The notes under the pieces are model-generated. The model was not told the origin of the DNA. It did no database searches and saw only the letters and a list, made by a program, of their open reading frames with translations. Shown here one piece after another: positions 1 to 25,685 of a DNA stretch of 25,685 bases. Position 1 is the stretch's first letter; the number at the start of each line of letters is the position of its first letter. The stretch is from contig JAWODC010000013.1 in assembly GCA_046483495.1 (NCBI GenBank), positions 1 to 25,685 on the forward strand. Reading direction: 5' to 3'. The position numbers were made by a program, and so were the translations under genes. The stretch comes from Desulfobacterales bacterium. Its GTDB lineage: Bacteria; Desulfobacterota; Desulfobacteria; Desulfobacterales; UBA5616.

Positions 1-1242
1 CGGCATTGAAATAGATACACGCACGCCGCCCCCCGAAATGCTTTCAACCGCCAGTGTGCCGCCCAGCAGCGCCAGCCGTTCTCGGATGGAAAACAGCCCA
101 AATCCGGTTTCTTCCGTTTCATCAATAGTTTTTGGGTCGAATCCCGGACCGTTGTCACATACCGCCACCTGAAGCATGTCGTTTTCATCGGACATTTCAA
201 TCCGCGCAGATTCAACGCCGCTATGTTTGACGACATTGAACAGCAGCTCCCGGACGCATTGATACAGTAGGTAAGTGATGTCTTCACGCTCCGGGTCCAG
301 ATCGGTATTGGCTCGCCATTCAACGGTTAAGCCGTGATGTTTCTTCATCCAGTGGGCGAGCCATTCCAGTGCGGCGGAAAGGCGGCCCTGCTGAAGCGCG
401 GGCGGGGAAAGCTCCGCGGTCAAAGTCCGGGAGGCCTGGATTGATTTGTCGATGAGGTCTTTTATTTTTTCCAAAACCCGCCGTTGGTTCCCTTCGAGCT
501 CGGGGACCAGCACCTCGCTGTTCATCTTGGCGCCCACCAGAAGCTGCTGCAGGTGATCGTGCAGAATCTCTGCGATGCGGCGCCGCTCGCGCTGCTCTGT
601 AAGCATCAGTTCGGAGGTCAGCCTGGCGAGCTGTTCCGCTCGCCGGTTCAGCTCGGCCGTTCGCTCCAGCACACGCTGTTCCAGCTCCTTTTTGATCCTT
701 TTGAGTTCGGTCAGATCGGTAACGGCAAAATGCCGGATCTTTTTCCCGCCTTCCAGTTCGGCTCTCGCCTCGAGTCGCACATGGAGAATGTTGCCGTCTT
801 TTCCAACCATCTGCAACTCACAGACCTCGTTTTTCATCAAGCCTGCCTTGTTTAAAAAGCGCATGTAGATCTGCACATCCGTGGCATAAATAAGACTTAA
901 AAAAATATCACCCACCAGGATTTTTCCGGGAGAGGCGAACATCTCCGCAGCCGCCCGGTTGATTCGGGTGATCACCCCCTTGGCATTGACGGATAAAAAT
1001 CCCACCGGGGCGGAATGGTACAGGTCGAGGTATTCGTTCCGGGAGGCTTCGAGCTCCTGTTGAGTCTTCCGGAGCTCTTCGTTTTGAATTTCCAGTTCCA
1101 CCTGGTGGGTCTCGAGTTCATGGAGCAGGTGACGAAGATCCGTTTGGGCGGGTTCAGCCACACCATTGCCGTGCCGCTGATTCAGGACTTCTTCCGCCTG
1201 CTTTCTCAGATTTGTAAACGCAAGGCTGGGCTTTTCAGGCAT
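1..1242 (-). CDS. PAS-domain sensor histidine kinase, HisKA_3/NarX-like; 3' end runs off the window
   Basis: Not in the ORF track; translated by hand from the ATG at 1242: MPEKPSLAF...LHELETHQVELEIQNEELR...YHSAPVGF (PAS)...EQRERRRIAEILHDHLQQLL (H-box)...VRELLFNVVKHSG...DNGPGFD...GFGLFSIRERLALLGG. The start overlaps the stop of the upstream CheR ORF. Confidence 0.92.
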   Translation of the reverse strand, partial: MPEKPSLAFTNLRKQAEEVLNQRHGNGVAEPAQTDLRHLLHELETHQVELEIQNEELRKTQQELEASRNEYLDLYHSAPVGFLSVNAKGVITRINRAAAEMFASPGKILVGDIFLSLIYATDVQIYMRFLNKAGLMKNEVCELQMVGKDGNILHVRLEARAELEGGKKIRHFAVTDLTELKRIKKELEQRVLERTAELNRRAEQLARLTSELMLTEQRERRRIAEILHDHLQQLLVGAKMNSEVLVPELEGNQRRVLEKIKDLIDKSIQASRTLTAELSPPALQQGRLSAALEWLAHWMKKHHGLTVEWRANTDLDPEREDITYLLYQCVRELLFNVVKHSGVESARIEMSDENDMLQVAVCDNGPGFDPKTIDETEETGFGLFSIRERLALLGGTLAVESISGGGVRVSISMP

Positions 1243-3214
1243 ATTTCTTTCCATTCGTTTTATCGGTGATATCTTCGATGGCCATCAGGATCTTCGGCGC
1301 TTCGCTTTCCCGCCCCTGCAGAAGCCGTACGTTGACCAGCATCTGTTTGGTTCCGAGGGTGTCGAACCGATGATCCACCCGGCAGTCTTCAAAATCTTTG
1401 CCCTCCGAGACAACCCGGGTGAGGAGCTCTCGCAGGGCCGGGATGTCCCACTGTCCTTCACCCAGCTCAAACAGCGGATTTGCCTCGACCTGTTCGGGAG
1501 CAAGCCCAAACGTCTCATAAAACCTTCGGTTTGCCGTGACCACTCTAAATTCCTTGTCCAGCACCAGGAGCGATTCCCGAACCGTATCCACGATGCTTTC
1601 GGCGAACCGCTTCTGGGGATCGATATTGATAAACGTGACAACCGCCCCCTCGATCCGGTGTTCACTCCTGCGATGGGTCATGATTCGCATACGGTACCAG
1701 TTCCCGTCTTTTGTGCGTACCTCGTCTTCAAAGGGCTGAAGCGTGTCGAGCACCCCGCGCACCTTTTTTATGAAATCATCATAGACCAGGCGGTGGGAAA
1801 TATGTCCAATCGGACGCCCGATGTCCGTTTCGATGAGGTTGAAAATCCGGGTCGCCTCCCGGGTGAACCGGCTGATGGAAAGATCGGCTCCCAGAAACAG
1901 AATGGCGATCTGCGTGCTGTCCAGCACGCCGGTGATGCTCTCGTAGGACCGGGACAGCTCTTCGGTCTTATTCTGCAGCTCGCTGTTTACCGTGGACAGT
2001 TCTTCGTTTAGCGACTGGAGCTCTTCCCGTGAGGACTCCAGCTCCTCGTTGGTGCTTTGAAGCTCCTCGTTTGACGAGCGCGTCTCCTCGTTTGCCGATC
2101 TGAGCTCCTCGTTCGAGCTTTCAAGCTCTTCCAGAGTTCCCTGGTACTCCTGGCGGACTTTCTGCAGCTCCCGTTCAAGCTCGGGCACCTGCTCAGCTTT
2201 TCCCTGCGCTTCCGGCCGGGGCTCGTCCTGGTCTTCCATGTCTTCGAACAGCACCATGAACGTGTGGTTCAGGGGAGCCGGTTCGGACAAGGACTTCACC
2301 ACCAGATCGAGGTCCTGATGGCCACCATTTGTTTTCACCCGCAGCCGTTTGTGCCGGACCTCCTCTCCGGATGATCGGGCCTTTCGCAGGGCACTGGCAA
2401 GTGCATAGCGGAGGCCCTCCCTGGCTGTGTCGAGGAGATTCAGGCTGGGTTTTCCCTGAGGATGCTCCAGGTACTTGCCCGTCCGGCCGTGGATAAAAAG
2501 GATTTGGCCCTCCGGGTTTACCACCACGCAGGCCGGGGTGTAGGACGTCAGCAGCATATCCCTGGTCGCCCGGGCGATGAGGGTCTCATCCTGACGACCG
2601 GCCGGCATCTTGTCCCCGGTGTAATCGGCATTCTCCAGCTGCGGGGTTCTCGTGGGAAATTCCACGTTCGTCCGGGCGCCTTGTACCGCCTCTTTTTTGC
2701 GGTAAATGCTGAATTTTTTCTGGGCGGTTTCAAACAGCTCGCCGAAACGGCCCACGCTTTCCGATGTCCCCAGAAACAGGACTCCCTTTTCTTTCAGCGT
2801 GTAGTGGAAAAGCGGGATCAGCTTCTGCTGGGCGGCGGGTTCCAGGTAGATCAGCAGGTTCCTGCAGACCAACAGGTCCAGGTTGGTAAAGGGCGGATCG
2901 GTCAGCACATTCTGAACGGCAAAGACGATAGGCTCCCGGACCTCCTTTTTGACGCGGTAGAAATGGTCTTCCCTGGTGAAAAACCGCTTCAGCCGTTCCG
3001 GGCCGACATCGGCGGCGATGTTCTCCAGGTATGCCCCGTACCGGGCTTTGTTGATGGCGTTCTTGTCCAGATCGGTGGCAAAGATCTGCACCCGCTGTTT
3101 GCTTTCCGCCTCATCGAGGGCTTCCTGAAGGATAATGGCCACGGAGTAGGCCTCCTCTCCGGTGGCACATCCCGCAATCCATACCCGAATGGCCTCCTTT
3201 TTTAACGCCATCAA
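1235..3214 (-). pseudogene. cheR: CheR methyltransferase-PAS-coiled coil-PAS protein (CheB/CheR-fusion type), 5'-truncated
   Basis: IRVWIAGCATGEEAYS, IFATDLD and DLLVCRNLLIY CheR motifs; ELESSNEELRSANEE...EELQSLNEEL heptads; PAS domains. The ORF begins at the SAM-binding domain with no CheR N-terminal or CheB domain and no clear RBS, 23 bp after the csbD stop. Confidence 0.8.
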
Positions 3215-3237: not shown

Positions 3238-3417
3238 TTACTTCCCGACGACGTCCTTGATCTGCCCGACCTTTTCCTGAATCTTTCCGTCAATGTTTTC
3301 GGCCTTACCTTCGGCTTCCAGGTCGCGGTTCCCGACAGCTTTTCCGGTTACCTGTTTGATCTTACCCTTGAGTTTGCGCCACTTGCCTTCCGACTTGTCC
3401 TGGGTGCTATATTTCAT
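3238..3417 (-). CDS. csbD: CsbD family general stress protein
   Basis: MKYSTQDKSEGKWRKLKGKIKQVTGKAVGNRDLEAEGKAENIDGKIQEKVGQIKDVVGK; GGAGG RBS at 3424-3428 before the ATG at 3417. Confidence 0.92.
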   Translation of the reverse strand: MKYSTQDKSEGKWRKLKGKIKQVTGKAVGNRDLEAEGKAENIDGKIQEKVGQIKDVVGK

Positions 3418-3489: not shown

Positions 3490-3504
3490 TCAATATTTGT
3501 GCCA
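3490..3504 (-). promoter_or_regulatory. Sigma54 -24/-12 promoter for csbD copy 1
   Basis: Minus strand TGGCAC-AAATA-TTGA versus consensus TGGCAC-N5-TTGC. Confidence 0.72.
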
Positions 3505-3604
3505 GATATCTAGTGCTTTCTGTCAAGACATTTATCATTCTGATATGTTTAGGTATTTAAAAAAGACCAGCATTCCGGCGCGGCCGTTGATGGTCATCTG
3601 GAAG

Positions 3605-3635
3605 GGTCATATGCAACCGGTGGTCACATATAACC
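3605..3635. promoter_or_regulatory. Tandem putative enhancer (UAS) boxes
   Basis: GGTCATATGCAACC (3605-3618) and GGTCACATATAACC (3622-3635), about 100 bp upstream of the -24 box; similar boxes at 9892 and 11057/11075. Confidence 0.6.
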
Positions 3636-3813
3636 CTTTCGTGATGATTGCGACCATGGCAAATCGTTGACTTGTCGTTTGGACAGAACGCCGGTGCGGA
3701 ATAAAAGACGGGAGAGAATATCCTACACTTTTCCGGTCTACACGAGAAGTCTTACCTTGACAAACGGAGGCCAAATAGAGGTTATGTATACTCCTTGTGT
3801 TGGGGCCGGCAAA

Positions 3814-4250
3814 TTATTTTATCATTCCCTGCTTTGCAACTTCGGCCATCGCGTCCTTGAGCATATTCTCATTCGCAAGATAGTAATGACCTACACGCTT
3901 GAGATCAGAATCAAGCTCGTAAACCAAATGAATTCCTGCAGGGATATTGAGTCCAATAATTTCTTTGTCCGTGATTTGGTCCAAATACTTGACGAGTGCC
4001 CGAAGGCTGTTGCCATGTGCAACGATAAGAAGCCTTTTGCCTGATCTTATCTCTTTGGAGAGTTTTTCGTTCCAGCACTCGATTACCCTATCAAGTGTAT
4101 CTTTCAGACACTCAGTTTTGGGGAGTCTGCTCTTCTCAATGCCTGCGTATCGTGGATCGTTGCCAGGGAAGCGATCGTCCTCTTCAGAAACAGGCGGTGG
4201 TGAAATTTCGAGCTTCTTCTCCAAATCAGAACCTGGCCTTCGCCGTGTTT
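3814..4250 (-). pseudogene. gpmA: 2,3-BPG-dependent phosphoglycerate mutase, C-terminal remnant with frameshift
   Basis: KHGEGQVLIWRRS in one frame, then EISPPP...DPRY...LPKTECLKDTLDRV...LIVAHGNSLRALVKYLD...LNIPAG in another (1-nt loss near 4210). The N-terminal RHG catalytic half is missing. Confidence 0.9.
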
Positions 4251-4251
4251 G

Positions 4252-4297
4252 GGGATAGCGGGACGGGATAGCGGGACATTCTCAACATTTAAATATT
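4252..4297 (-). repeat. Putative mobile-element end, copy A1, with a 13-bp tandem duplication
   Basis: GATAGCGGGACATTCTCAACATTTAAATATT (4267-4297) is identical to 6651-6681. GGGATAGCGGGAC occurs twice in tandem (4252-4264, 4265-4277) at the gpmA breakpoint. Confidence 0.75.
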
Positions 4298-4342
4298 CTG
4301 CGTTTTTCCTTGTTCTCAATCTACCGTTTGGATTTTTCCATA

Positions 4343-4376
4343 ATGATGCCCTTCCTTCTATTTTGAAGGGCATCAT
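4343..4376. repeat. Perfect 12-bp hairpin
   Basis: ATGATGCCCTTC-N10-GAAGGGCATCAT. Confidence 0.8.
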
Positions 4377-4419
4377 GCCATATACATCGAGGGCTGTGAA
4401 GAAGGGGTTAATCTGACGC

Positions 4420-4561
4420 TTACAGAGTTTGTATCCGGCGGTATGGGGGCATTGTCCGTTGTTGTGAGATTTTAAGCGGGATTGAGATTTTCAGTGAAGC
4501 CTACATGGTGCCTGTCCGGGTTGGATTTGGACTGGGGGATGTAGACATAGTAGAATTTCAA
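4420..4561 (-). pseudogene. GIY-YIG nuclease family remnant
   Basis: Hand translation from the TTG at 4561: MKFYYVYIPQSKSNPDRHHVGFTENL / frameshift / SRLKSHNNGQCPHTAGYK. This matches the YVYIL..YVG.T.DL..RL..HN.G...HT pattern; truncated. Confidence 0.75.
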
Positions 4562-4719
4562 TTGGTTTTGGGTTTTTTGGTGGTTGATGTCGTTTTATTG
4601 ATTCACGAAGTGTTTGGCTTTCGCTTTCCTTAAGCGAAGGCATCCTTGGGCTTTTCGCTGCGCTCAAAACGAAGGCTGGCGCGCCGATCCGCCGATTTGC
4701 TTTCTTCTGGAAAATATAC

Positions 4720-4951
4720 CAGCCTGGATCGCACTGATCAGTTCAAGCTCTTTTGCTTAAGGATCAATGATGGCCGGCATAAGTGGAATCTGTTTTTGGA
4801 TCTTTTCGCGCATTTTTTGGTGGATCCTATCTTCTCTTTGGCCGTAAAATCATTTGTTTTCGCTTTTGACTTTACTACTTTGAAATTGAAAAGTCCACCT
4901 TAGAATGCGTTTTTTTATCTAATTCAAGAGCTTACGTTTGTGGGTGGACAC
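4720..4951 (-). mobile_element. IS remnant (left end plus transposase N-terminus), probably ISNCY/ISDol1-like
   Basis: ATG at 4813 gives MREKIQKQIPLMPAIIDP*AKELELISAI with an in-frame TAA at 4757-4759. It resembles, from recall only, N-termini of Desulfobacterales ISNCY transposases. Putative terminal sequence GTGTCCACCCACAAACG at 4951-4935. Confidence 0.55.
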
Positions 4952-5205
4952 CTTCTAAGGAAATTTACAGAAATGCGTTGTCTTATCCCCGCAGAGTAGT
5001 TACTATTAAATGCCACGGAAAATTGAAAAGGCGACTCAATGGGGCGGAACAAGAGGGGTAACTGCGAACAGCCGCGCACTTGCCCTGGTGTCCTTTGTTC
5101 GTATTGGTGCCGCTGATGTGTGCGTTATCCAGCCATGCAATCCCTCACCCCAAGCCACCCACGCGGAATCAGTTTTCTGTCAGCGAAAACAAGGAGGGCT
5201 GCTCG

Positions 5206-6591
5206 ATGAATATTCAAAAATCACTTGCCACAAACACGCTGTTGGGGATGTGTATCGCCGTGCTCGCGTTGGGGGGATGCGCCATGCTACAGAGCAGCAC
5301 AATAGAAAAAGAGGAGCGTGCGCGCGGGCTTGATGGTGCGGAGGCCGGCGAACGAGTTACCATGGAGGAGCTGGACGGACTCACCCGCGCCTTCGCCGAC
5401 CGCTACGTCGGCCTGCTCTATTCCGTCTGTGACTCTTTGCAGGAGGATAACCCTGATCCGGGGCAGCGCCAAGCGGCACAGATGCTTCTCGTGGACAACG
5501 CCACCAACGTTTACGACATCGCCAGTAATGCCGACGCGTTCACCCGCGTGCTTGATTTGCTGGTGGTCACGAGATTGGTAAGTCAGGTGTGGGACGATGA
5601 CGGCAGAGCCGTAGCGGTGTTCGGCAAGCGAGGTCAGGCGCTGGCCGCCGCTCTGTCTCAGGCCAGAGCGGAATCACGGGTGCTCGCCTCTCGTGTGCTC
5701 ACCGCCGATCAACTCGGCATTCTTGACTCTCTGCTGCGGGACTGGCGACAGGAGAACCCGAAAGTCGTTCGCGCCTCTTTTGTTCGCTTCTCAAACTTCG
5801 CCATAGGGCGGGGCAAGTCCGCCGCCGAACAGATACTCGAGGCCCGGGGCCTCTTAGCGCCAATCACGGAAGCGGAGCAGGCCGTCGACGAGGTACGACT
5901 GCTCGGCGAGCGAATGTTCTATCGGCTCAAGCGCGAGTCCACACTGCTCCGGTGGCAAGTGGCGGCGATGAAGGGCGATTTGGTCGCCACCCCTGAACTC
6001 AACACCGCTCTTGCCGACGTGCATTCGGTGACCGATCAGATCGAGCAACTACCCGCAAACATCGCGGCTGAGCGGCAAGCCATCCTCACAGGTATCGATG
6101 ACCGTTTGCAGCGTGCGGATGCGACAATCTCCAATGTGCGGGCAACTCTAGACGAGGCAAACATTTTCGTCGCGTCGCTGGAACCAGTGGGCGAATCACT
6201 CAACGAAATGCTCACGACTGCGGATACCCTGTTTGCTCGGTATACGGCCTTGGACCAATCGAAGACGGGCAATGAGGGGCGTCCCTTTGACATCCGCGAG
6301 TACGAGCAGACGGCCGAAGAAGTGACGCTCGCCGTAAAGAGAATGGACGAGTTGCTCACGACGACGGAACACCTGCTAAAATCGCCGGAATTGAGACACG
6401 GGATACAGGAGGTGAATGATTCGGTCGACGGACTGATCATGACGGTGGCCGATCAGAGCCAGGTTGTGATGAATGCATTTTTCTGGCGCGCCTCCGCATT
6501 GCTGGGTGTGCTATTCGTGATGCTCATCTTGTATCGAATAATTTCATTCCTGCTCATGCGGAAATTAGAAAAGGGGCAGGCTGCCCGATAG
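5206..6591 (+). CDS. Hypothetical lipoprotein, helical/coiled-coil, with a C-terminal TM helix
   Basis: AAGGAGG RBS before the ATG at 5206; signal peptide with lipobox LGGC; hydrophobic C-terminal segment followed by a basic tail. Confidence 0.8.
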   Translation: MNIQKSLATNTLLGMCIAVLALGGCAMLQSSTIEKEERARGLDGAEAGERVTMEELDGLTRAFADRYVGLLYSVCDSLQEDNPDPGQRQAAQMLLVDNATNVYDIASNADAFTRVLDLLVVTRLVSQVWDDDGRAVAVFGKRGQALAAALSQARAESRVLASRVLTADQLGILDSLLRDWRQENPKVVRASFVRFSNFAIGRGKSAAEQILEARGLLAPITEAEQAVDEVRLLGERMFYRLKRESTLLRWQVAAMKGDLVATPELNTALADVHSVTDQIEQLPANIAAERQAILTGIDDRLQRADATISNVRATLDEANIFVASLEPVGESLNEMLTTADTLFARYTALDQSKTGNEGRPFDIREYEQTAEEVTLAVKRMDELLTTTEHLLKSPELRHGIQEVNDSVDGLIMTVADQSQVVMNAFFWRASALLGVLFVMLILYRIISFLLMRKLEKGQAAR

Positions 6592-6650
6592 GAAGTAAAA
6601 CACTCCAGCCCGCCGGTTAACGCAAAACGCCGACGCTTTTCCGCAAGTAT

Positions 6651-6681
6651 GATAGCGGGACATTCTCAACATTTAAATATT
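6651..6681 (-). repeat. Putative mobile-element end, copy A2
   Basis: 31-bp identity to 4267-4297 in the same orientation. Confidence 0.75.
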
Positions 6682-6804
6682 TGCACCTTCTAAGCATCAG
6701 CATGTGAGGAGACGCTTTCTGACATGTTATGCGGAAAAAACAAAGTCCAGGCAAATCGCAGGACAAAGTGGCGGTTGGGAACCGGGATACGAATGGGTTG
6801 GTAT

Positions 6805-7039
6805 CTCGGCGTAACGATAACCGCCAGATCCACGCCCGTCTCCAGGGCGGAAACCGATTCGAAGCACGCCTGTCCGTGCATGGTCTTGTATTTGGGGTTA
6901 ACCGGCAGCACGGTTCCGGAAAACCAACGTCGACAAGATTTTTCATCAACGCATTGCCGATAGTGCCCGCTTTTTCGCTGGCGCCTACCACCGCCACATG
7001 TTGCAGTCTAAAGATGCGGTTCAGATTGTATTGGCCCAT
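6805..7039 (-). pseudogene. NDP-forming acyl-CoA synthetase / Pat-type acetyltransferase, N-terminal CoA-binding fragment
   Basis: MGQYNLNRIF...VAVVGASEKAGTIGNALMKNL..GF / frameshift near 6920 / GTVLPVNPKYKTMHGQACFESVSALETGVDLAVIVTP; similarity stops there. Confidence 0.85.
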
Positions 7040-7089
7040 CCGTAGCCTCGCTTTTTAAGTTTTTCTTTCTTGTGCAAACCGCGCGCCGG

Positions 7090-8403
7090 TTAAGCTTCGA
7101 TTATTCTCAGCCGCATCAGATAAGCTTCGATTTTAGCGCGGTCATGGGCGGAATCCACGCTACGCGCCGCCAGTTCTGCAACCTGTTGCATCTGCTCGAA
7201 AAGCGCCCTTCGGCGCCGCGGGCGGGTCGCCAGGCCGGAAAGGATTTGAAGCACTTCCAGTATCCGTAAGAGAATGGTGACATTACCATTGGCGCTGCGT
7301 CGAATCTGGTCGAAGGCGTAGGTCAGCAGGCTTTCAAAATTCGGGCTTTTGGCAATGATGCGCAGTTCCCCTTCCACGTAGCGGTGCGATGAAGGGATCG
7401 GGCGAGGCGCAAGCCGCGCCAGAATCGCCAACAGATAATCCACACAAATCACGGCCGTCGTGGTATCGTTGATGCCGGGAGAAAGGGCTTTCAAAGCAAT
7501 ATCCACGATTTGCCGGATTCCGAAAGCGGCATCCTGTGACACTGTTCGGTGACGGTCGATGTCGTATGCCGCCTGCAAGGCACCGATGATCTCTTTTTGC
7601 GGTGGTTTCTCCAGAGCGACCGAAACGAGTGCGGCCCCTTGGACCACAAACTCGCCGATGGCGTGTTCCATCCTAACGATGGTCTTGTTCTCACATGCCA
7701 AACGCAGCAGCGCCGCGTTGTCCACGCTTTGGATATATCCATTGCCCTTGGCCGGCACGGCCTTCCAGATATGCTCCGGCAAAGGGGGAGGCGTCGGATA
7801 CGCCTCATCGTCGTCAACCCACCCGTCTCCGAGTTTCTTCGGGAAAAGCCGGTCGACAACCAGCATGGTTTCATCGGCTACCGAGGCAATAATGTTGGCT
7901 GCCTGAATCGAAGCGGAGATATGATGAATGAAGAAAATGAGGACGCCGATGCCGCCCATCGCCAGCACGACGCTGAAAGACACGGCCAGGCCCGGCACGA
8001 ATACGCCATCTTCGCCGCCGCGGATGGTCCGCAACACGATCAGGCAATAGGTAAAAATGCCGGCGAAAACACCCAGTACGATCTGTGTGACGCGGTCGCT
8101 CATGAAGTTCCTGAGGATGCGTGAAGTGTATTGACTCGAGGCCAGCGCCAACGTCATCAGAACCATCGAAAACGTGACCCCCACCACGGTAATCATCGAA
8201 CCGGCAATCGTGGACAGCATCCCGCGTGCGCCATCCGCGCCCACGCCGAACAGGCGCGGCCAGTGGGTGAGCCACTGTTCGCTTCCGGTGGAATCCACAC
8301 GGATCAGAGCTACGGCCAGGACGATACTGCCGGTCACAATCAGCGAAGGCAAAAACCAGAAACTCGACCGCAGGATACTCCAGAGTTGTTTTAATCTATT
8401 CAC
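7090..8403 (-). CDS. DUF2254 family membrane protein
   Basis: SFWFLPSL, ARGMLSTIAGSMITVVGVTFS..LALASSQYTSRILRNF and QDAAFGIRQIVDIALKALSPGINDTTTA motifs. Confidence 0.9.
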   Translation of the reverse strand: MNRLKQLWSILRSSFWFLPSLIVTGSIVLAVALIRVDSTGSEQWLTHWPRLFGVGADGARGMLSTIAGSMITVVGVTFSMVLMTLALASSQYTSRILRNFMSDRVTQIVLGVFAGIFTYCLIVLRTIRGGEDGVFVPGLAVSFSVVLAMGGIGVLIFFIHHISASIQAANIIASVADETMLVVDRLFPKKLGDGWVDDDEAYPTPPPLPEHIWKAVPAKGNGYIQSVDNAALLRLACENKTIVRMEHAIGEFVVQGAALVSVALEKPPQKEIIGALQAAYDIDRHRTVSQDAAFGIRQIVDIALKALSPGINDTTTAVICVDYLLAILARLAPRPIPSSHRYVEGELRIIAKSPNFESLLTYAFDQIRRSANGNVTILLRILEVLQILSGLATRPRRRRALFEQMQQVAELAARSVDSAHDRAKIEAYLMRLRIIEA

Positions 8404-8507
8404 GAATCGATATCCATTGCCGCGTTCGATTCGGCCTTGATCATCGTTTCGGCCATGCCAATCATACGAGTTTTACCGAAATGATGATCGTGGCCGTAAA
8501 TCGGGTA

Positions 8508-8921
8508 TCAGGAACCCTTGACGGCAAGGCCGTTTTCGACCGATTTCACATCCTTGATACTACGGGCAATTTCCATCGCCCTGTCGATACTTTGCCGGGA
8601 ATCAACGACGCCGTTCAGCGTGACGACGCCGTTTGTCGTGATCACGTTGATCTGGAACGATTTAAGCAGGGGGTCACTCAAGATATCCGCCTTAATCTTG
8701 GCTGTGATAGCGGTATCATTCATGTATTTTCCAGCTTGTTCGGCTTTGTCACCGATCGCTTCCTTGGCGCCTTCAAATTTTTCACCCATTTTTTCAACTG
8801 CTTGATCAACTTTTTCCCCTGCCTTCTCGGCCGTTCCCTTTTGCTCACAACCGGCTAATGCCAGAAAAAAGGATAAGAGAACAACTATGATGAAACCTCT
8901 GCGCGATAGACTCATTTTCAA
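8508..8921 (-). CDS. BON-domain (OsmY-like) lipoprotein
   Basis: Lipobox LAGC; EKAGEKVD repeats; DTAITAKIKADIL...INVITTNGVVTLNG BON motif. Start is the TTG at 8921 or the ATG at 8915. Confidence 0.9.
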   Translation of the reverse strand: MKMSLSRRGFIIVVLLSFFLALAGCEQKGTAEKAGEKVDQAVEKMGEKFEGAKEAIGDKAEQAGKYMNDTAITAKIKADILSDPLLKSFQINVITTNGVVTLNGVVDSRQSIDRAMEIARSIKDVKSVENGLAVKGS

Positions 8922-8941
8922 TCTCCTTCCGTTAACGATAC

Positions 8942-9226
8942 CTATTTGGCGATCAGATCATTCTTGATGGACTCGATCCCCTTGACAGTGCGAGTGATTT
9001 CGACTGCTTTATCGACGGCCTTTTGAGAATTAACGAAGCCGCTAAGTTGGACGACACCCTTGTAAGTTTCAACACCGATCTGGAACGACTTGAGAAAATC
9101 GTCCGCTGACAGCAACGATTTGACCTTGATCGTGATGACGGAGTCGTCAATGTACTCTCCGGTGCGGGACTTCGTGGCGGTCGATGCGCAGGCCCCAAGT
9201 ATCACGCTAAACATCATCAGAACCAA
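8942..9226 (-). CDS. BON-domain lipoprotein; 5' end possibly frameshifted
   Basis: LGAC lipobox; TGEYIDDSVITIKVKS...VETYKGVVQLSGFVNS. The natural-looking ATG at 9248 is out of frame. Confidence 0.82.
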   Translation of the reverse strand: MVLMMFSVILGACASTATKSRTGEYIDDSVITIKVKSLLSADDFLKSFQIGVETYKGVVQLSGFVNSQKAVDKAVEITRTVKGIESIKNDLIAK

Positions 9227-9302
9227 ACAGGCAACAACATAAGTTCATGGCATTGCTTCCTTTAAGTAAATCCATCGCCTTTTCCGGCAATGGCAGCCAG
9301 GG

Positions 9303-9452
9303 TTACACCCGTTTTCGGCCTTGAATAACCTGGATCACCACCAAAACGATGGCAATCACAAGCAGGACATGAACAACACCGCCCAGCGTGTAGCCTGTCA
9401 ATAGTCCCAACGCCCACAAAACCAGTAGAATCACAAATATAGTCCAAAGCAT
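9303..9452 (-). CDS. lmo0937 family (DUF5670-like) small membrane protein, 49 aa
   Basis: Not in the ORF track. MLWTIFVILLVLWALGLLTGYTLGGVVHVLLVIAIVLVVIQVIQGRKRV*; GGAGG RBS at 9458-9462. Confidence 0.9.
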   Translation of the reverse strand: MLWTIFVILLVLWALGLLTGYTLGGVVHVLLVIAIVLVVIQVIQGRKRV

Positions 9453-9493
9453 GTTGACCTCCTAATAGCCCCTTTTATTGTTGGCGACTGTGA

Positions 9494-9673
9494 TTACTTA
9501 CCGAAAACTTTCTTGATATCGCCGGCTTTCTTTTGAACCTTGCCGGCTGTGTTTTTATCTTTTCCTTCGGTTTCCAGTTCGTGGCCATCGGTTATCTTGC
9601 CGGCGACCTCTTTCATTTTACCCTTGACTTTGTGAAACTTGCCCTCCACTTTGTCTCTTGTGCTGGATTTCAT
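9494..9673 (-). CDS. csbD: CsbD family general stress protein, copy 2
   Basis: MKSSTRDKVEGKFHKVKGKMKEVAGKITDGHELETEGKDKNTAGKVQKKAGDIKKVFGK; AAGGAGG RBS. Confidence 0.92.
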   Translation of the reverse strand: MKSSTRDKVEGKFHKVKGKMKEVAGKITDGHELETEGKDKNTAGKVQKKAGDIKKVFGK

Positions 9674-9780
9674 GGTATACCTCCTTTTGGTCGATGGTTG
9701 ACGCATGTTTACGCATCAAGGCCGGAGATTACTGCCGGTTCTTGCATTCACGGCACATAAGTTCATGGTTGATTTATTAA

Positions 9781-9795
9781 GCAATCTTTGTGCCA
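9781..9795 (-). promoter_or_regulatory. Sigma54 -24/-12 promoter of the csbD-lmo0937-BON-BON-DUF2254 operon
   Basis: Minus strand TGGCAC-AAAGA-TTGC(T), a perfect consensus match. Confidence 0.85.
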
Positions 9796-9867
9796 CGTTT
9801 CCGGTAGGCATCGTTAAGCAACGTATCAAGCTGATATAAAAAACTATTTAAATAATATTTTATGGCA

Positions 9868-9905
9868 GGTTATAAACACCCATACGAAAAAGGTCATATA
9901 ATCTC
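9868..9905. promoter_or_regulatory. Putative enhancer (UAS) boxes
   Basis: GGTCATATAATCTC at 9892-9905, 97 bp from the -24 box, and a weaker GGTTATAAACACCC at 9868-9881. Confidence 0.5.
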
Positions 9906-10128
9906 CCTGTACCGCCCTGCCTGCCGATGACTTCCCGATATCTGCTTTAATGATTTTAATGGCCGGTTATTAGGGTTAAACGCAAGCTTCGTGGCAAATC
10001 CCATCTATGATGGACCGCGTCGATTTTTGCGGCGCCCAGCTGTCTTGAGGCACAGTATTGTGCACATAGTGAACGATTACAGTGAGTGCACGAGGAGCCC
10101 CGCGATGTGCTTATGTCTTCTCTTCAGT

Positions 10129-10695
10129 TCAAGGCTTTTTGATACGGGTAATTTTGGTGCCTTCGATACTGAGGCTTACCATCAGTCCCTGCTGGTCAAA
10201 AATGAAGGCGTAGGCATCGTCTCGCAATGTCGTCGATGACAGATTCTTGGCAATGCCTTCATCGACCACAACCACGGTCGGTCCGACACCGATTGACCAG
10301 CCCTCCGATTTTTCAAGATAGTTCTTGGCCTTGTCGTTCATCAAAAATACGACGTAGGCGTATGACTGGGCGCCAGCCTGCCAGCCCCAGGACGCAGAAA
10401 CGGTATTATAGTAGCCCTCGACATGTGAGCCTTCCATCATAACACCTTCACCATAACTTCCGCCGAAGATGAGCCCTGCCTTGATGACGTTAGGGAACAC
10501 CAGGATTTCCTTTGCGTTCTTGAAAATTGTTTCGGCAACATGATTTTGCTTGTACAAGGTTTGCAGTGCCTGAGCAGCATCCTTGTTTAACTCTTCTACG
10601 CTTGCAGCATTTGTCTGGCTGCTGATCGCAATCAGCGAAAATGTAGCGACAGCCACAAGAAGAAGATAACGTAAAAAGCTTTGGATGGGTTTCAT
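10129..10695 (-). CDS. Ysc84/SYLF-like lipid-binding periplasmic protein
   Basis: Signal peptide; ILVFPNVIKAGLIFGGSYGEG, SWGWQAGAQ and GWSIGVGPTVVVVDEG motifs. Confidence 0.88.
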   Translation of the reverse strand: MKPIQSFLRYLLLVAVATFSLIAISSQTNAASVEELNKDAAQALQTLYKQNHVAETIFKNAKEILVFPNVIKAGLIFGGSYGEGVMMEGSHVEGYYNTVSASWGWQAGAQSYAYVVFLMNDKAKNYLEKSEGWSIGVGPTVVVVDEGIAKNLSSTTLRDDAYAFIFDQQGLMVSLSIEGTKITRIKKP

Positions 10696-10942
10696 GATTT
10701 TTTCCTTTAGTTAAATGAGTAGTGTTGAAATTGTTATCGATTGAGTCCGTGCCCGTTGGAGTTCCTTTTTGAAAAAGCCCAAAACACCATCAGACCATTC
10801 CAAAGGCTTACCGATATAATTAGAGAAGATTATGCCATCCAAATTGATGGCGGACGTTCTTTTATTCGTTAAACTGTTCACCTTGTCCTTCAAATGTTCA
10901 AATGGTTACCCAGCGATTTATCCATTCCCAAAATTTATGTAA

Positions 10943-10957
10943 TCAATTTTTGTGCCA
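10943..10957 (-). promoter_or_regulatory. Sigma54 -24/-12 promoter upstream of the Ysc84-like gene
   Basis: Minus strand TGGCAC-AAAAA-TTGA(T). Confidence 0.7.
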
Positions 10958-11056
10958 AGCTTCAATTAACAGGATGTTGTCACTCATCATAATGATTTAT
11001 ATAGAGAATTGCGCTAAAAGCTTATTCATGTCAGTGATTTAAAGCTATAGAAAAAA

Positions 11057-11088
11057 GGTCATATTTACCAAATCGGTCATATATGGCC
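11057..11088. promoter_or_regulatory. Tandem putative enhancer (UAS) boxes
   Basis: GGTCATATTTACCA (11057-11070) and GGTCATATATGGCC (11075-11088, one mismatch from the palindrome GGTCATATATGACC), 100 bp from the -24 box. Confidence 0.62.
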
Positions 11089-11983: not shown

Positions 11984-12615
11984 ATGTTCGCCGTTTTACA
12001 GGGCGACCGTTTGGAATACCAGACAAGGGAAGGAACCGAGGCCCTGGTCTGGGACGTGCTGGCCTGGATCGGTTCGGATTACCATAAGCTGTATGTGGAA
12101 AGCGAGGGGGCATGGCTGCTGGATGAGGAGAAAATCGAGGAAGCAGGGGACGAGGTGCTGTATGGATACAATTTCGCAAGCTTCTGGGATCTGCAGTTCG
12201 GCCCCCGCTATGACTTCAAGCCCGAGCCGGACCGGACATTCGCCGCTTTTGGCGTTCAGGGACTGGCGCCTTACTGGTTCGAGGTGGATGCCACCGCATA
12301 CGTCAGCGAGGATGGCGATTTTTCTGCAGCTCTCGAAGCCGAATACGATGTTCTGCTCAGCCAACGCCTGATACTCCAACCTCGGTTTGAAACCGCCATT
12401 GCTCTACAGGAAGTCGAGGAAAACGGTGTTGGACAGGGAATCAACGGCATCGAATTGGGTGTGCGGCTGCGCTATGAAATCCGCCGGGAGTTCGCTCCCT
12501 ACATCGGGGTGTCCTGGAGCGCCGGAAATTGGGCATAACCGCGGATTTTGGCGAGGAGGAAGGGGAAGGGATTGGTATCGCATCGTTTGTGGCCGGTGTA
12601 AGGTTCTGGTTTTGA
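11984..12615 (+). pseudogene. copB: Copper resistance outer-membrane protein CopB/PcoB, 5'-truncated and frameshifted
   Basis: DRLEY, GVQGLAPYWFEVDA, LSQRLILQPR and RLRYEIRREFAPYIGVSW motifs. An extra 2 nt near 12521 moves the true end RKLG...FVAGVRFWF* (TGA at 12613-12615) out of frame. No signal peptide. Confidence 0.9.
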
Positions 12616-14306: not shown

Positions 14307-15581
14307 ATGACATTTTTTAAAGAGCTTCAGTGCTGGCTTGAACGGTTGCCCATCGGTGACAACCACGCCGCCGCCATTACCGCAATAATTGCTGTATCGG
14401 TGGTCTCCACGCTTGCGGTGGTCGCTTTTATGATCAGCCGCCGCATCGCCAACCGCACCATTCCCCGCGTGTTTCAGTTCACCGGCCACCGTTGGGGCCA
14501 GGTGCTGGTGGAGCACAATGTGTTCCGGCATGCCGCCCTGCTGGTGCCGGCCCTGGTGGCTCTTCTTTTCATTCCTGTCGTTCTGGAAGCCTATCCAAAG
14601 ATTACGACGGCCGCCATGCGGGTGCTGTCCATCTACTTGATCGGTTCATCGCTGATTACTCTCGATGCCTTGATCAATGGGCTGCACGCCATCTACAATC
14701 AGTTCAATGTCTCCAAAGAAATTCCGTTGAGCAGCCTCGCACAGGTGGTCAAAATCGTGCTCTACTTCGTCGCTTTCATTTTGCTGTTGGCGGTGCTGTT
14801 CGACCGTACACCGCTCTACCTGTTCAGCGGTCTGGGGGCCATGACAGCCGTTCTCATGCTGGTATTCAAAGACCCCATCCTTGGATTCGTCGCCGGTATT
14901 CAGCTGATATCCAACCGGATGCTCAAGCAAGGGGACTGGATCGAGATGCCCAAGTACGGCGCGGACGGAGACGTTCTCGAGATCACCCTGGCTACGGTGA
15001 AGGTACAGAACTGGGACCGCACCATCACCACCATCCCCACATATGCCCTGATCAGCGATTCCTTCCGAAACTGGCGCGGCATGCAAGAGTCGGGCGGACG
15101 GCGCATAATGCGGTCGATCCATATCGACATGCGCACCATCCGTTTTTGCACGTCCCGAATGCTGGAACGCTTCTCGAAGATTCGCTACATTGCCGATTAC
15201 ATCGACCGCAAGCACCGGGAAATAGATGCGCACAACGCCGCCCTGGGGGCGGCAGCCCGGGATGGGGCCAATCGCCGTCGACTGACCAATATCGGCACGT
15301 TTCGCGCCTATGTGGATTCTTACCTGAGAAATCACCCGATGATCAACGCGCAAATGATCGTGATGGTGCGCCAACTTGAACCCACCGATCACGGTTTGCC
15401 CCTGCAGGTTTACGCGTTCTGCCGGGACAAGGCATGGGTCAACTACGAAGCCGTGCAATCGGATGTCTTCGATCACCTCCTGGCCATCTTGCCGGAATTC
15501 GATTTGCGGATTTTTCAGAACCCATCCGGCCACGATATGACCCTGCTGGGCGAGCGGTTTGCCGGCGCACGGACTGATTAG
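14307..15581 (+). CDS. mscS: Small/miniconductance mechanosensitive channel, YbdG/MscM-like
   Basis: GLGAMTAVLMLVFKDPILGFVAGIQL, GDWIEMPKYGADGDV, NWRGMQESGGRRI; AAGGAG RBS. Confidence 0.93.
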   Translation: MTFFKELQCWLERLPIGDNHAAAITAIIAVSVVSTLAVVAFMISRRIANRTIPRVFQFTGHRWGQVLVEHNVFRHAALLVPALVALLFIPVVLEAYPKITTAAMRVLSIYLIGSSLITLDALINGLHAIYNQFNVSKEIPLSSLAQVVKIVLYFVAFILLLAVLFDRTPLYLFSGLGAMTAVLMLVFKDPILGFVAGIQLISNRMLKQGDWIEMPKYGADGDVLEITLATVKVQNWDRTITTIPTYALISDSFRNWRGMQESGGRRIMRSIHIDMRTIRFCTSRMLERFSKIRYIADYIDRKHREIDAHNAALGAAARDGANRRRLTNIGTFRAYVDSYLRNHPMINAQMIVMVRQLEPTDHGLPLQVYAFCRDKAWVNYEAVQSDVFDHLLAILPEFDLRIFQNPSGHDMTLLGERFAGARTD

Positions 15582-16979: not shown

Positions 16980-17309
16980 TTAAAATGCAAACATGCGCTG
17001 CAAAACTGAAACGACATCTGATTGGGCCTTGGAGTCGATCGTCCCAAGTCTTCTGATAAGTCGTGATTTATCTATCGTTCTAATTTGATCCAGTACGATT
17101 TGGCCTGATTTTTTTCTAAACCGGCAAGAGACTCTGGTAGGGTATTCCTTTGTCGCAGATGTCATTGGTGCGACAATGATTGTTCGAATGTTTTCATTCA
17201 TTTCGTCTGGAGAGACAACCAGGCATGGCCGGGTTTTCTGAATTTCAGATCCCATAGTAGGATCAAGCCCCACCAGGAAAACATCAAAACGTTTCACTAC
17301 CACTGCCAT
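16980..17309 (-). CDS. mazF: PemK/MazF family toxin
   Basis: LDPTMGSEIQKTRPCLVVSPDEMN...VLDQIRTIDKSRL. Confidence 0.95.
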   Translation of the reverse strand: MAVVVKRFDVFLVGLDPTMGSEIQKTRPCLVVSPDEMNENIRTIIVAPMTSATKEYPTRVSCRFRKKSGQIVLDQIRTIDKSRLIRRLGTIDSKAQSDVVSVLQRMFAF

Positions 17310-17551
17310 TCTTCCTCATCCCATGAATGTGAAATGTCTTTATCAGTAATGATTAGCTCGTCATCACCGTTTTCCGCCATCATCTTAAAGGCTTTATCCC
17401 ACCTATCGCGAGCTTTTTGAACGGGTCGTATAATGATCTGATTTTTTTCCAGTTCTATCTCGACATCATCTATGATACCAGTTTGTTCCAAAATGGGCTT
17501 TGGGATGCGTAACCCTTTCGAATTACCTATTTTTATTATACGTGCTCTCAT
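17297..17551 (-). CDS. mazE: AbrB/MazE family antitoxin
   Basis: MRARIIKIGNSKGLRIPK...WDEEEWQW; GGAGG RBS at 17559-17563; overlaps the toxin start. Confidence 0.93.
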   Translation of the reverse strand: MRARIIKIGNSKGLRIPKPILEQTGIIDDVEIELEKNQIIIRPVQKARDRWDKAFKMMAENGDDELIITDKDISHSWDEEEWQW

Positions 17552-17578
17552 GGTGACACCTCCTATATGGGTGGACAC

Positions 17579-19847: not shown

Positions 19848-20212
19848 CTTAATCCTATTAGTGACGAAGACGACCCGAATACTCTGTAGACCCTATTAGA
19901 TGTAAGGCCGGAAGATGCTATTTCAGGTACATTGGAATTGGCCGATTATTCGGATATCGAATGAGCAAACCGTCTATCATGGCGTTCACGATATTAGGTG
20001 CTTATAACTCGGTCACGTTTGGTTATGATCAAACGAACACTTTAATCCCCATCCAGAAATGAAAATTCGATTCGGTTCGGAAATCTTAATATCAGGGATA
20101 CTCCAGGTGTTTTGGTGATGATACGTTTCAGGCCGGCGCAGGTGTGAATAATCCATTTTTGCATGGGTGTCTATTAATCGGGACATTATGCTTGGAGAAA
20201 GGATCGTGCAGC

Positions 20213-22312
20213 ATGAAAGTATGGCCTGGTTTAATGTATCCACTGGGTGCCACTTACGATGGGTCCGGGACAAATTTTTCCTTGTTCTCTGAAGTTGCCG
20301 AACATGTCGAGCTCTGTCTTTTCGACGAGAATGGAAATGAATCGCGCGTAGACATGCCGGAGGTTACAGGCTTTTGTTGGCACGCCTACCTGCCTTTGGT
20401 CGAACCCGGTCAGCGATATGGTTACCGTGTTCACGGCCCTTGGGATCCATCCAAAGGCCATCGGTGCAATCCATCGAAATTGCTGCTCGATCCCTATGCC
20501 AGGGCGATCGACGGTCAGGTCCAATGGGACGAGGCGATGTTTCCATACCGTTTCGAGGATGGTCCTGAAAGCCGCAATGACAGCGACAGTGCACCGTTTA
20601 TGGCCCATTGTGTGGTCCACCAGCCCCATTTTGACTGGAGCGGCGACCGCCGTCTGCAACTGCCCTGGCACGAAACCATCATCTATGAAACCCATGTCAA
20701 AGGGTTTACCGCCAGGCATCCCGACATACCGGAAAACCTGAGAGGCACCTTTGCCGGGTTCGCACATCCTGCGGTCATCGAGTACTTAAAAGAACTCGGC
20801 ATTACTGCGCTCGAGCTGATGCCCGTTCATCACTTCATCCATGACAAGCATCTTTTGGAACGGGGGCTGAGCAATTACTGGGGCTACAACTCGATCGGCT
20901 ATTTTGCGCCGCACAGCGAGTATGCGTCGGATAAACGTCCCGGTTCGGTGGTGGCGGAGTTCAAGCAGCTTGTCAAATCCCTGCACCAGGCAGGCATCGA
21001 AATCATTCTGGATGTCGTTTACAACCATACGGCGGAAGGCAATCACTTAGGGCCGATGATTTCCTTCAAGGGCATCGACAATGCCTATTACTACCGTTTG
21101 ACGGAAGATGCGCGCTACTATATGGATTACACGGGCACCGGCAACAGCCTGAACATGCGCAACCCCCATGTTTTGCAGCTGCTCATGGACTCGTTGCGCT
21201 ATTGGGTTCTGGAAATGCATGTGGACGGCTTTCGTTTCGATCTGGCTTCCACGCTGGCTCGCGAGCTGCACGATGTGGATCGACTGTCGGCCTTTTTCGA
21301 TATTATTCAGCAGGATCCGGTCATCAGCCAGGTCAAGCTCATCGCCGAGCCATGGGATGTGGGCGAGGGCGGGTACCAGGTGGGCAATTTCCCTCCGATA
21401 TGGTCCGAATGGAACGCCGGATACCGCGACATCGTGCGCGATTTCTGGCGCGGAGAGGATCAAACGCTCGGAAACTTCGCCTCCCGTTTCACCGGCAGTT
21501 CAGACCTCTACGAAGATACCTCGCGTCTGCCGTATGCCGGCATCAATTTCGTCACCGCCCATGACGGCTTTACGCTCAACGACCTTGTCTCCTATAACGA
21601 GAAGCACAACGAGGCCAACGGCGAAGAAAATCGGGACGGCGAAAGCCACAACCGATCATGGAACTGCGGCGAGGAGGGGCCCACGGACAACCCGGACGTC
21701 CGGCAGTTGCGGGACCGTCAGAAACGCAATTTTCTATCCACCCTGTTTCTGTCTCAGGGCGTGCCCATGCTTTTAGGCGGCGACGAGTTCGGACGCACCC
21801 AAAACGGCAACAACAATGCCTACTGCCAGGACAACGAATTGTCCTGGTACGACTGGGAGAGAGTTGACGACGAACTGCTCGCTTTTTGCCGCAAAGTTAT
21901 CGGTTTCAGGAGAGAGCACCCGGTATTCCGGCGGCGGGGGTGGTTTCAGGGCAGGCCGATCCATGGCAGCGAAGTCAAGGACATCGCCTGGTTTTCGCTC
22001 GAAGGCCGGCAAATGGATGAAGAAAACTGGGGTGAGGGTTATGCCAAATCGATCGGCATCTTCCTGAACGGTGCTACCATCCCGAACCCCAATCTTCGCG
22101 GCGAACCCGTGTTCGACGACAGTTTTTACATCATGTTCAACGCCCATTACGAGCCGCTGGATTTCTCGCTGCCCGATGAAAAATGGGGCGTTCAATGGAT
22201 AAAGGAATTCGATACGGCCGCCGGTTGGCCGGAAGAAAAAAAATCGTTCAAGGCCGGGGAGCGGATCGGCATAGAAGCCCGCTCCCTGGCAGTCTTACGC
22301 CTTGAACGCTGA
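20213..22312 (+). CDS. glgX: Glycogen debranching enzyme (isoamylase, GH13)
   Basis: YPLGATYDG, NYWGYN, DVVYNHTAEG, DGFRFDLA, AEPWD and FVTAHDGFTL motifs; start at MKVWPG after GGAGAAAGGA. Confidence 0.97.
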   Translation: MKVWPGLMYPLGATYDGSGTNFSLFSEVAEHVELCLFDENGNESRVDMPEVTGFCWHAYLPLVEPGQRYGYRVHGPWDPSKGHRCNPSKLLLDPYARAIDGQVQWDEAMFPYRFEDGPESRNDSDSAPFMAHCVVHQPHFDWSGDRRLQLPWHETIIYETHVKGFTARHPDIPENLRGTFAGFAHPAVIEYLKELGITALELMPVHHFIHDKHLLERGLSNYWGYNSIGYFAPHSEYASDKRPGSVVAEFKQLVKSLHQAGIEIILDVVYNHTAEGNHLGPMISFKGIDNAYYYRLTEDARYYMDYTGTGNSLNMRNPHVLQLLMDSLRYWVLEMHVDGFRFDLASTLARELHDVDRLSAFFDIIQQDPVISQVKLIAEPWDVGEGGYQVGNFPPIWSEWNAGYRDIVRDFWRGEDQTLGNFASRFTGSSDLYEDTSRLPYAGINFVTAHDGFTLNDLVSYNEKHNEANGEENRDGESHNRSWNCGEEGPTDNPDVRQLRDRQKRNFLSTLFLSQGVPMLLGGDEFGRTQNGNNNAYCQDNELSWYDWERVDDELLAFCRKVIGFRREHPVFRRRGWFQGRPIHGSEVKDIAWFSLEGRQMDEENWGEGYAKSIGIFLNGATIPNPNLRGEPVFDDSFYIMFNAHYEPLDFSLPDEKWGVQWIKEFDTAAGWPEEKKSFKAGERIGIEARSLAVLRLER

Positions 22313-25439: not shown

Positions 25440-25587
25440 TAGAAGTGGTTTCAAAACCTCCCCTCAGGCCCCAATATCGGCGTTGGGAGGAAGGATTTAA
25501 TGCTCAAAATACGTTATGTATTCCTGCGCTTGAATCCTTCCTCCCGCCTTGATCTTGGGCCTGATTGAAGGTTTAAAACCACTTCTA
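25440..25587. mobile_element. MITE-like non-autonomous element, 148 bp
   Basis: Terminal inverted repeats TAGAAGTGGTTT...AAACCACTTCTA bounded by TA. Nested internal arms TCAGGCCC/GGGCCTGA and GGGAGGAAGGATT/AATCCTTCCTCCC. Confidence 0.8.
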
Positions 25588-25685
25588 GTGTTTTCAATCC
25601 GGTGTTCTGTTTTTGCCCATTCTCAACGGCTTCCCTTAAGGAAGTAAATGCCATAGCTGACCGAATTTCAGTAGTATTTGGCCGG

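Follow-up and report, generated by a model that had tools for sequence, protein, structure and literature searches.

A clustered sigma-54 promoter set with a doubled-palindrome enhancer in a Desulfobacterales bacterium, its candidate activator and a predicted ABM-fold partner

Introduction

How genes of the CsbD and OsmY type are controlled in sulfate reducers without RpoS, SigB or EcfG is a question to which the literature searched gives no answer. It is raised by a stretch of 25,685 nucleotides from a Desulfobacterales bacterium (assembly GCA_046483495.1, contig JAWODC010000013.1), here called the window, which is contig C50 of a 4.19-Mb assembly in 94 contigs. Three promoters in it, P1–P3, precede csbD-1, a gene run headed by csbD-2 and a Ysc84-like gene, and two others of the same build lie elsewhere in the genome. 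Sequence comparison makes it likely that the five share a sigma-54 motif, a probable integration host factor (IHF) site and a doubled palindrome bound by an activator encoded on contig C28; this activator is predicted to be bound, and may be restrained, by a protein of the ABM fold. The regulatory logic is standard sigma-54 control; the new element is the ABM protein, which travels with the activator and is predicted to bind it.

Promoters and Enhancer

A first-pass annotation of the window had described one three-element build upstream of csbD-1, the csbD-2 run and the Ysc84 gene, and every coordinate that it gave was found to be correct. The window contains just three boxes of the form TGGCAC-N5-TTG(C/A), each on the minus strand; read as sigma-54 −24/−12 boxes they are GG-N10-GA in P1 (3490–3504), GG-N10-GC in P2 (9781–9795) and GG-N10-GA in P3 (10943–10957). 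GG and TTG are in register at all three, and at the −12 position P2 has C and the other two have A. From the standard spacing of 12 nt past the −12 base, transcription would start at about 3478, 9769 and 10931, respectively. The middle element, ATCA-N3-TGAT, starts at 3534, 9825 and 10986, at 29, 29 and 28 bp from the promoter box (a fourth copy, at 8641, is intragenic). Farther upstream, GGTCATAT is present at 3605, 9892, 11057 and 11075, and GGTCACAT at 3622. The claim of a common three-part architecture held for P1, whose enhancer (3605–3635) consists of 14-mers at 3605–3618 and 3622–3635 (11/14 and 12/14 consensus matches, period 17), and for P3 (11057–11088), with 14-mers at 11057–11070 and 11075–11088 (10/14 and 13/14 matches, period 18), but not fully for P2, which has a single half-degenerate site (9892–9905, 10/14 matches) and no partner box.

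When 129 sigma-54-like boxes in the genome were searched by exact pattern, two further promoters with this build emerged, C28:+9008 and C43:−2350, bringing the total to five. Under a trained ranking model these five took places 1–5 of 1302 candidate boxes, with scores of 85, 81, 79, 78 and 44; the next-best box scored 24 and the best in two block-shuffled genomes 22, so that four of the promoters stood far above the null, with P2 at 44. The training set of the model comprised 54 promoters of other genomes and was first gathered with a matrix seeded from the source genome, so that the test is not fully independent. No tandem enhancer sites were found elsewhere in the genome beyond the five promoters, and the co-occurrence of the boxes extends to related genomes. 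The spacers of the five promoters are dissimilar, with identities of 27–38% over a 45-bp stretch and 18–54% over a 28-bp stretch, so that recent promoter duplication was ruled out and the proposal of motif conservation upheld.

Across 64 dereplicated promoters (five of 71, with one weak site, had been removed before the logo was drawn), the enhancer consists of two copies of a 14-bp palindrome, GGTCATATATGACC, repeated at a period of 17 bp in 50 promoters and 18 bp in 13, and its proximal site begins 110–117 bp before the promoter box; the tandem, palindromic enhancer suggested earlier was thus borne out. With tandem upstream sites and an RpoN gene in the genome (TIGR02395, 460 bits, above cut-off), P1–P3 and their counterparts are very probably sigma-54 promoters. 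Two points weigh against this uniform picture: P2 has only half an enhancer site, and A stands in place of C at the −12 position in 47 of the 64 member promoters, compared with 4 of 25 AT-rich non-member boxes of the source genome. Sigma-70 promoters were rejected, 11 being found where 8.3 ± 2.6 were expected by chance, and an Rfam search for structured RNA gave no match. Eleven RNA runs contain 7–13% of the sampled words, and the four that were aligned yielded short contig pieces, from which start site, strand and level are not readable.

The Candidate Activator

The window itself encodes no activator, as had been noted. The candidate, on contig C28 (P0001), is a protein of 481 residues with an N-terminal PAS domain, an AAA+ domain (PF00158, E 1.6e-70) and a Fis-type helix-turn-helix (PF02954, E 1.1e-09), and Walker A, Walker B and GAFTGA motifs could be read in its translation. 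The protein resembles the expected NtrC-family activator in its AAA+, GAFTGA and helix-turn-helix parts and departs from it in the input, which is a PAS domain rather than a receiver; receiver domains are present in some more distant relatives (P0009, P0012 and P0016). The protein scored under all the named NCBIfam cut-offs (bits obtained/required: NifA 371/529, NorR 359/476, PspF 293/444), its best match being FhlA (396/830), which its AAA+ domain resembles most and from which it also differs in having no GAF domain. No solved structure was found for its PAS domain. The genome encodes 24 strong hits to sigma-54 activators, or enhancer-binding proteins (EBPs), and among the EBP C-termini examined in it the helix RSTLRAR occurs only in this protein.

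Three kinds of evidence tie this protein to the doubled palindrome, of which the first is proximity. Motif promoters were found at 28 of 40 orthologue loci, compared with 0 of 22 loci of other EBPs, and in 23 of the 35 genomes having both, the motif begins 36–460 nt past the last codon of the activator. The second is co-occurrence: in a sample of 150 genomes of the order, motif and activator were both present in 35, the motif only in 6, the activator only in 10 and neither in 99. A loose motif pattern was too noisy for such counting, and a reversed-pattern control gave 0 matches in all 151 genomes. Five of the ten activator-only genomes (G006, G015, G359, G377 and G398) gained a promoter by matrix scan, and in one motif-only genome (G029) the orthologue is interrupted by a contig end. 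Of 250 genomes sampled across the phylum, two had both, two the activator only and 246 neither. Close orthologues are mostly in Desulfobacterales-type genomes, including one cultured carrier, Desulfatitalea alkaliphila M08but (locus L029), and a plasmid search returned general EBPs only, at less than 60% identity. Orthologues with motif promoters were also observed at L022, L026, L027 and L039, whose contigs carry the labels Sumerlaeota, Alphaproteobacteria, Planctomycetota and Myxococcota, by transfer or mis-binning.

The third is covariation between helix and site. Activators with Arg at the start of the recognition helix have outer bases G...C in 65 of 67 sites (34 loci), and those with Pro have G...C in 1 of 14 and C...G in 6 of 14 (9 loci). 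The outer bases were not used in site placement, and the set leaves out 55 of 108 EBP tails with no box within 650 nt, as well as sites with fewer than 8.5 of 12.5 core matches. In Fis, according to the accessible text of PMC4784862, Arg85, with which the recognition helix starts, contacts the outer guanine; the helix here is similar in its N/D-R-x-T-L-R register, with Arg opposite the outer G, and differs in that the core is of 14 bp, not 15 bp. Weighing against the covariation is the tree: the Arg-helix proteins are largely one clade, with three changes on a quick tree, so that one or two events are represented and not many. Further sister activators (L174, L189, L194 and L042) were seen to combine RSR with GTGA..TCAC and RFR with CTCAA..TTGAG, which hints that the helix-to-site code may be wider, with L047 and L045 as exceptions. 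Taken on these sequences, the C28 protein is very probably the cognate activator of the doubled palindrome, and the enhancer motif, formerly described as unassigned, has a likely reader.

The ABM-Fold Partner

The ABM gene belongs to the commonest family downstream of motif promoters, with 22 of the 138 genes in first or second place. Among the 150 genomes, ABM and activator occurred together in 39, ABM alone in 5, the activator without ABM in 6 and neither in 100, and the gene accompanies Pro-helix as well as Arg-helix activators. The predicted complex of activator residues 1–425 with the ABM protein scored 0.76, the best of three controls scoring 0.00; among 157 solved complexes 116 attained this mark, as did 2 of 215 mismatched pairs, and it is only roughly valid with our own alignments. 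Contact agreement between runs was 100%, with a partner pLDDT (the model's per-residue confidence) of at least 89. The predicted interface comprises residues 181–193, 320–323 and 339–350 of the AAA+ domain and residues 13–24 and 69–80 of the ABM protein. Tyr186 of the activator, in this interface, is absent from the other EBPs of the genome (19 parsed), and on the ABM side K14, E17, Q20 and G76 are conserved in at least 95% of 39 ABM rows, mean conservation being 0.73 at the interface and 0.63 overall. No ABM-EBP complex was found among the PDB hits, judged by molecule name. Two points count against a specific, inhibitory contact: residues 339–347 of the predicted interface are shared by most EBPs, and the model is silent on the direction of effect. 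It is nevertheless fairly probable, from the modelling, that the ABM protein binds the AAA+ domain of the activator.

That it inhibits the activator is a tentative proposal, favoured by analogy with FleN, PspA and NifL, which in the accessible text of PMC8528422 are small proteins that inhibit EBPs through the central domain. That the ABM protein is instead an ordinary enzyme under the same control, or a positive cofactor or sensor, is a real if not a leading possibility; it would suit the annotation of the family as quinol or antibiotic-biosynthesis monooxygenase, a complex that gives no direction, and the 6 of 45 activator genomes with no ABM match at the threshold used. It would sit less easily with a gene that follows both helix types, with the most conserved ABM residues falling in the predicted interface, and with the inhibitory action of the known partners.

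Stress Role and Breadth of the Regulon

The genes behind P1–P3, all on the minus strand, are of the stress type, as the first-pass annotation had stated. The first gene of P1 is csbD-1 (3238–3417; PF05532, E 1.8e-17), with a ribosome site and ATG. P2 precedes a presumably co-transcribed run (7090–9673) of csbD-2 (9494–9673), an lmo0937-family gene (9303–9452), two BON genes (8942–9226 and 8508–8921) and a DUF2254 gene (7090–8403), and the first large gene of P3 encodes a Ysc84/SYLF-domain protein (10129–10695; PF04366, E 2.2e-08, with NF049970 below its cut-off). Across genomes the targets were found to include CsbD, BON, lmo0937/DUF5670, DUF3309, PRC-barrel, superoxide dismutase (SOD), GroEL, band-7 and OmpA proteins and glycosyltransferases. 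On this gene content a stress role of the island is moderately favoured.

The further claim that the system runs the general-stress gene set was overstated, since five promoters lie in about 23 kb and 97 of 150 genomes have no motif, activator or ABM gene: the regulon forms an accessory stress island, present in about 30% of the order, and does not amount to the whole general stress response. No motif promoter was found at the MscS (14307–15581), GlgX-like (20144–22312) or CopB (11984–12538) genes of the window, or at the BON gene on contig C27. The source genome has four sigma-70-family factors, namely RpoD, an RpoH-like protein and two extracytoplasmic function (ECF) factors not assigned to an ECF group, and neither RpoS nor SigB was found among them. 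In none of 41 relatives did RpoS exceed the cut-off, irrespective of whether the island was present, which tells against the island as an order-wide replacement for RpoS.

A narrower job for the same wiring, in which the island responds to a single kind of stress (membrane protein quality, oxygen or salt) in a Psp-like manner and a broad programme is run elsewhere, is a respectable minority reading. The five promoters alone, the glgX and mscS genes of the window without motif, and targets or neighbours that include band-7 pairs, FtsH, GroEL, BON, OmpA, a phospholipase D-family enzyme and SOD would all agree with it. The span of the targets over envelope, sugar-transferase, oxidative, chaperone and RNA-binding functions argues instead for a broader role, as do the CsbD, lmo0937-family, DUF3309 and PRC-barrel targets, which belong to general stress sets elsewhere.

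The Middle Box and Alternative Regulators

IHF-like boxes (WATCAR-N4-ATA in P1) may be placed at 3533–3545, 9824–9836 and 10985–10997 on the minus strand. In the 64 promoters the consensus, aligned on its first five columns, is WATCAR-NNN-GATR, located 40–41 bp from the promoter box in 56. The ATCA-N3-TGAT box described earlier is present at all three window promoters, but its palindromic reading fits only 18 of the 64, and the relaxed IHF pattern WATCAR-N4-WTR fits 41. A T-tract lies 10–12 bp upstream of the box, and according to the accessible text of PMC7962754 IHF commonly binds between enhancer and promoter. The genome has six genes assigned to the HU/IHF family. Against an IHF site stand the strict E. 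coli consensus (WATCAR-N4-TTR), met by only 5 of 64 boxes, the occurrence of the box at −40/−41 in only 2 of 58 non-member boxes of the source genome, and the Desulfovibrio orp1 promoter, where the most similar site, IHF1, is not the functional one in the accessible text of PMC3897727. A separate palindrome-binding regulator is unlikely. The conserved GAT half (G in 50, A in 52 and T in 60 of 64), departing from the E. coli TTR, and the rarity of the box at other sigma-54 boxes of this genome would fit such a protein, but the T required by the palindrome carries 0.2 bits, 10 of the 64 boxes have TTR, and both T-tract and position are those usual for IHF. The sequences thus favour, with good confidence, an IHF site over a palindrome.

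Some findings weigh against the C28 protein as the reader of the enhancer. At 12 of the 40 orthologue loci no promoter was present in the sequence examined, and related genomes are not independent, so that counts are reported with no P value. Promoters with no intact orthologue were found in G318, G373, G382, G009 and G007, the last retaining several motif promoters and an internally deleted activator remnant (L130:6186–6572). That another of the 24 EBPs reads the promoters, the C28 gene being merely a passenger of the island, is very improbable: these five genomes and the tendency of mobile-island genes to co-occur regardless of function would allow it, but in 23 genomes the site lies no more than 460 nt past the stop codon of the activator, and it changes with the recognition helix and is absent from all 22 loci of other EBPs.

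Proposed Mechanism

With the C28 protein as activator, its dimers would bind both palindromes at about −157 to −127, IHF would introduce a bend at about −67 to −55, and the activator ATPase would open the sigma-54 closed complex, ATP-driven opening being the standard mechanism. The C43 promoter would read khpA, ABM, radical SAM and two band-7 genes toward ptsP and the activator gene, giving positive feedback, and ABM binding to the AAA+ domain would give negative feedback. The best guess for the signal is an envelope or oxidative/osmotic stress cue, perceived through a PAS domain of the same kind as the terminal PAS of the CheB/CheR fusion described below. A bolder and rather doubtful extension is that of a portable, self-contained general-stress switch of RpoS-less anaerobes, which would combine sigma-54, a two-letter helix code, self-amplification, a PAS input shared with CheB/CheR fusions and a non-enzyme ABM anti-activator.

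Comparison with Known Systems

Neither this regulon nor an ABM-fold EBP partner was found in the literature searched, which excluded most subscription papers and RegPrecise. CsbD and OsmY are absent from the text and 11 supplements of a COG-level sigma-54 survey (PMC12316311), and "CsbD" from the accessible text and supplements of a Desulfovibrio vulgaris EBP study (PMC4641369). The EBP site table of the latter, in its accessible part, contains 13 TGACC, ATATGA and GTCATA hits, none of them matching, its figure logos lying outside the comparison. The D. vulgaris regulons of OrpR/DVU2106 (with IHF), DVU2894 and DVU3305 are similar to the present one in belonging to sulfate reducers and, as far as the accessible text of PMC4641369 and PMC3897727 extends, in having tandem palindromes, intervening IHF and one-component PAS EBPs. 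The nearest site is that of DVU2894, GTCA-N6-TGAC, in flagella regulation, compared with GTCA-N4-TGAC here (PMC4641369, same part).

The pairs PspF-PspA, FleQ-FleN and NifA-NifL resemble the predicted arrangement of a sigma-54 activator with a separate partner of its AAA+ domain, going by the accessible text of PMC8528422 and the listing of PMC12998190. PspA, FleN and NifL are a coiled coil, a P-loop ATPase and a kinase-like protein, respectively, whereas the partner here has an ABM/ferredoxin-like fold, and the activator differs from PspF and NifA in its N-terminal PAS and in scoring below both cut-offs. The genes for PspA and FleN are themselves targets of their activators. The RpoS, SigB and EcfG regulons share the target families CsbD, OsmY-like BON, lmo0937 and SOD; unlike them, the present system, in which no dedicated sigma factor was found, would use sigma-54 with an ATPase activator and is small, clustered and patchy.

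Island Layout and Neighbouring Genes

Contig C43 shares 191 exact bases with the left end of the window, and its other end shares 191 bases with C28. If these joins hold, the five promoters are spread over 23.3 kb, with the activator gene starting 10.7 kb to the left of the window. Against this layout counts a fork between C43 and C28, where C76 can likewise be joined to C28 at the same place; a copy of the C43 radical SAM gene with an internal deletion, on C76 (2437–2878), was observed as the cause of the fork. The proposed order is supported by L023 and L029, where a promoter is followed on one strand by ABM, a pair of genes of band-7 size, GroEL or FtsH, and the activator. The near-complete genomes G231 and G282 have six and four promoters around the activator, with csbD, BON, DUF2254, ABM and radical SAM genes. 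Downstream of the C43 promoter in the source genome are khpA, ABM and a B12 radical SAM gene, and downstream of the C28 promoter, 200 bp past the activator stop codon, two glycosyltransferase and two GH130 genes.

After csbD-1 lies a 5'-truncated CheR-PAS_10-PAS gene (1235–3214, minus strand), which lacks residues 1–387 of its full CheB-CheR-PAS homologue. It starts mid-domain with no CheB, CheR_N or evident ribosome site and has no second copy in the genome, probably owing to a deletion within the island; with the CheB part lost, the fusion may not work. The PAS of the activator shares 42.5% identity with the final PAS of this fusion and has no other match in the genome. A PAS-HisKA_3-HATPase kinase (1–1254, minus strand) continues on C43 into a receiver domain, bases 1–191 being the C43 overlap. 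A Kai clock input was considered and, for this genome, rejected: the activator PAS matches the CheR fusion only, kai genes were present in one orthologue locus examined (L039), and the kai cluster of this genome, on C12, precedes a non-EBP PAS protein and has no motif promoter. That cluster (C12:16144–20234; L120, L121) consists of kaiC-kaiB-kaiB followed by a PAS protein of 549 residues.

Several other features were observed. The C-terminal part of a phosphoglycerate-mutase-like gene (3814–4224) and a CoA-binding-like start that loses frame (6617–7039) are signs of island decay. An open reading frame (ORF) of 503 residues (5080–6591), which begins like a lipoprotein and has a hydrophobic stretch in its C-terminal part, belongs to no Pfam or NCBIfam family, and related sequence is present in the RNA contigs. 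A MazE/MazF-type toxin-antitoxin pair lies at 16980–17578 on the minus strand. At 25440–25590 there is a self-reverse-matching repeat of about 150 bp, found on about 20 other contigs at 75–94% identity and similar to miniature inverted-repeat transposable elements or repetitive extragenic palindromes. A lysine-rich ORF of 40 residues with no Pfam family follows the promoter at the activator tail (L001, about 9174–9299; L005:2503–2673), accounting for 8 of 138 downstream genes.

Significance

For the control of CsbD- and OsmY-type genes in these organisms, an activator, its DNA site, a single residue-base pair and a candidate partner can now be named, all of them testable. An output for orphan CheB/CheR-PAS fusions is suggested as well. 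Should the ABM protein bind the activator and inhibit it, a large family annotated as monooxygenases would gain a regulatory role, and sigma-54 activators would gain a new kind of anti-activator.

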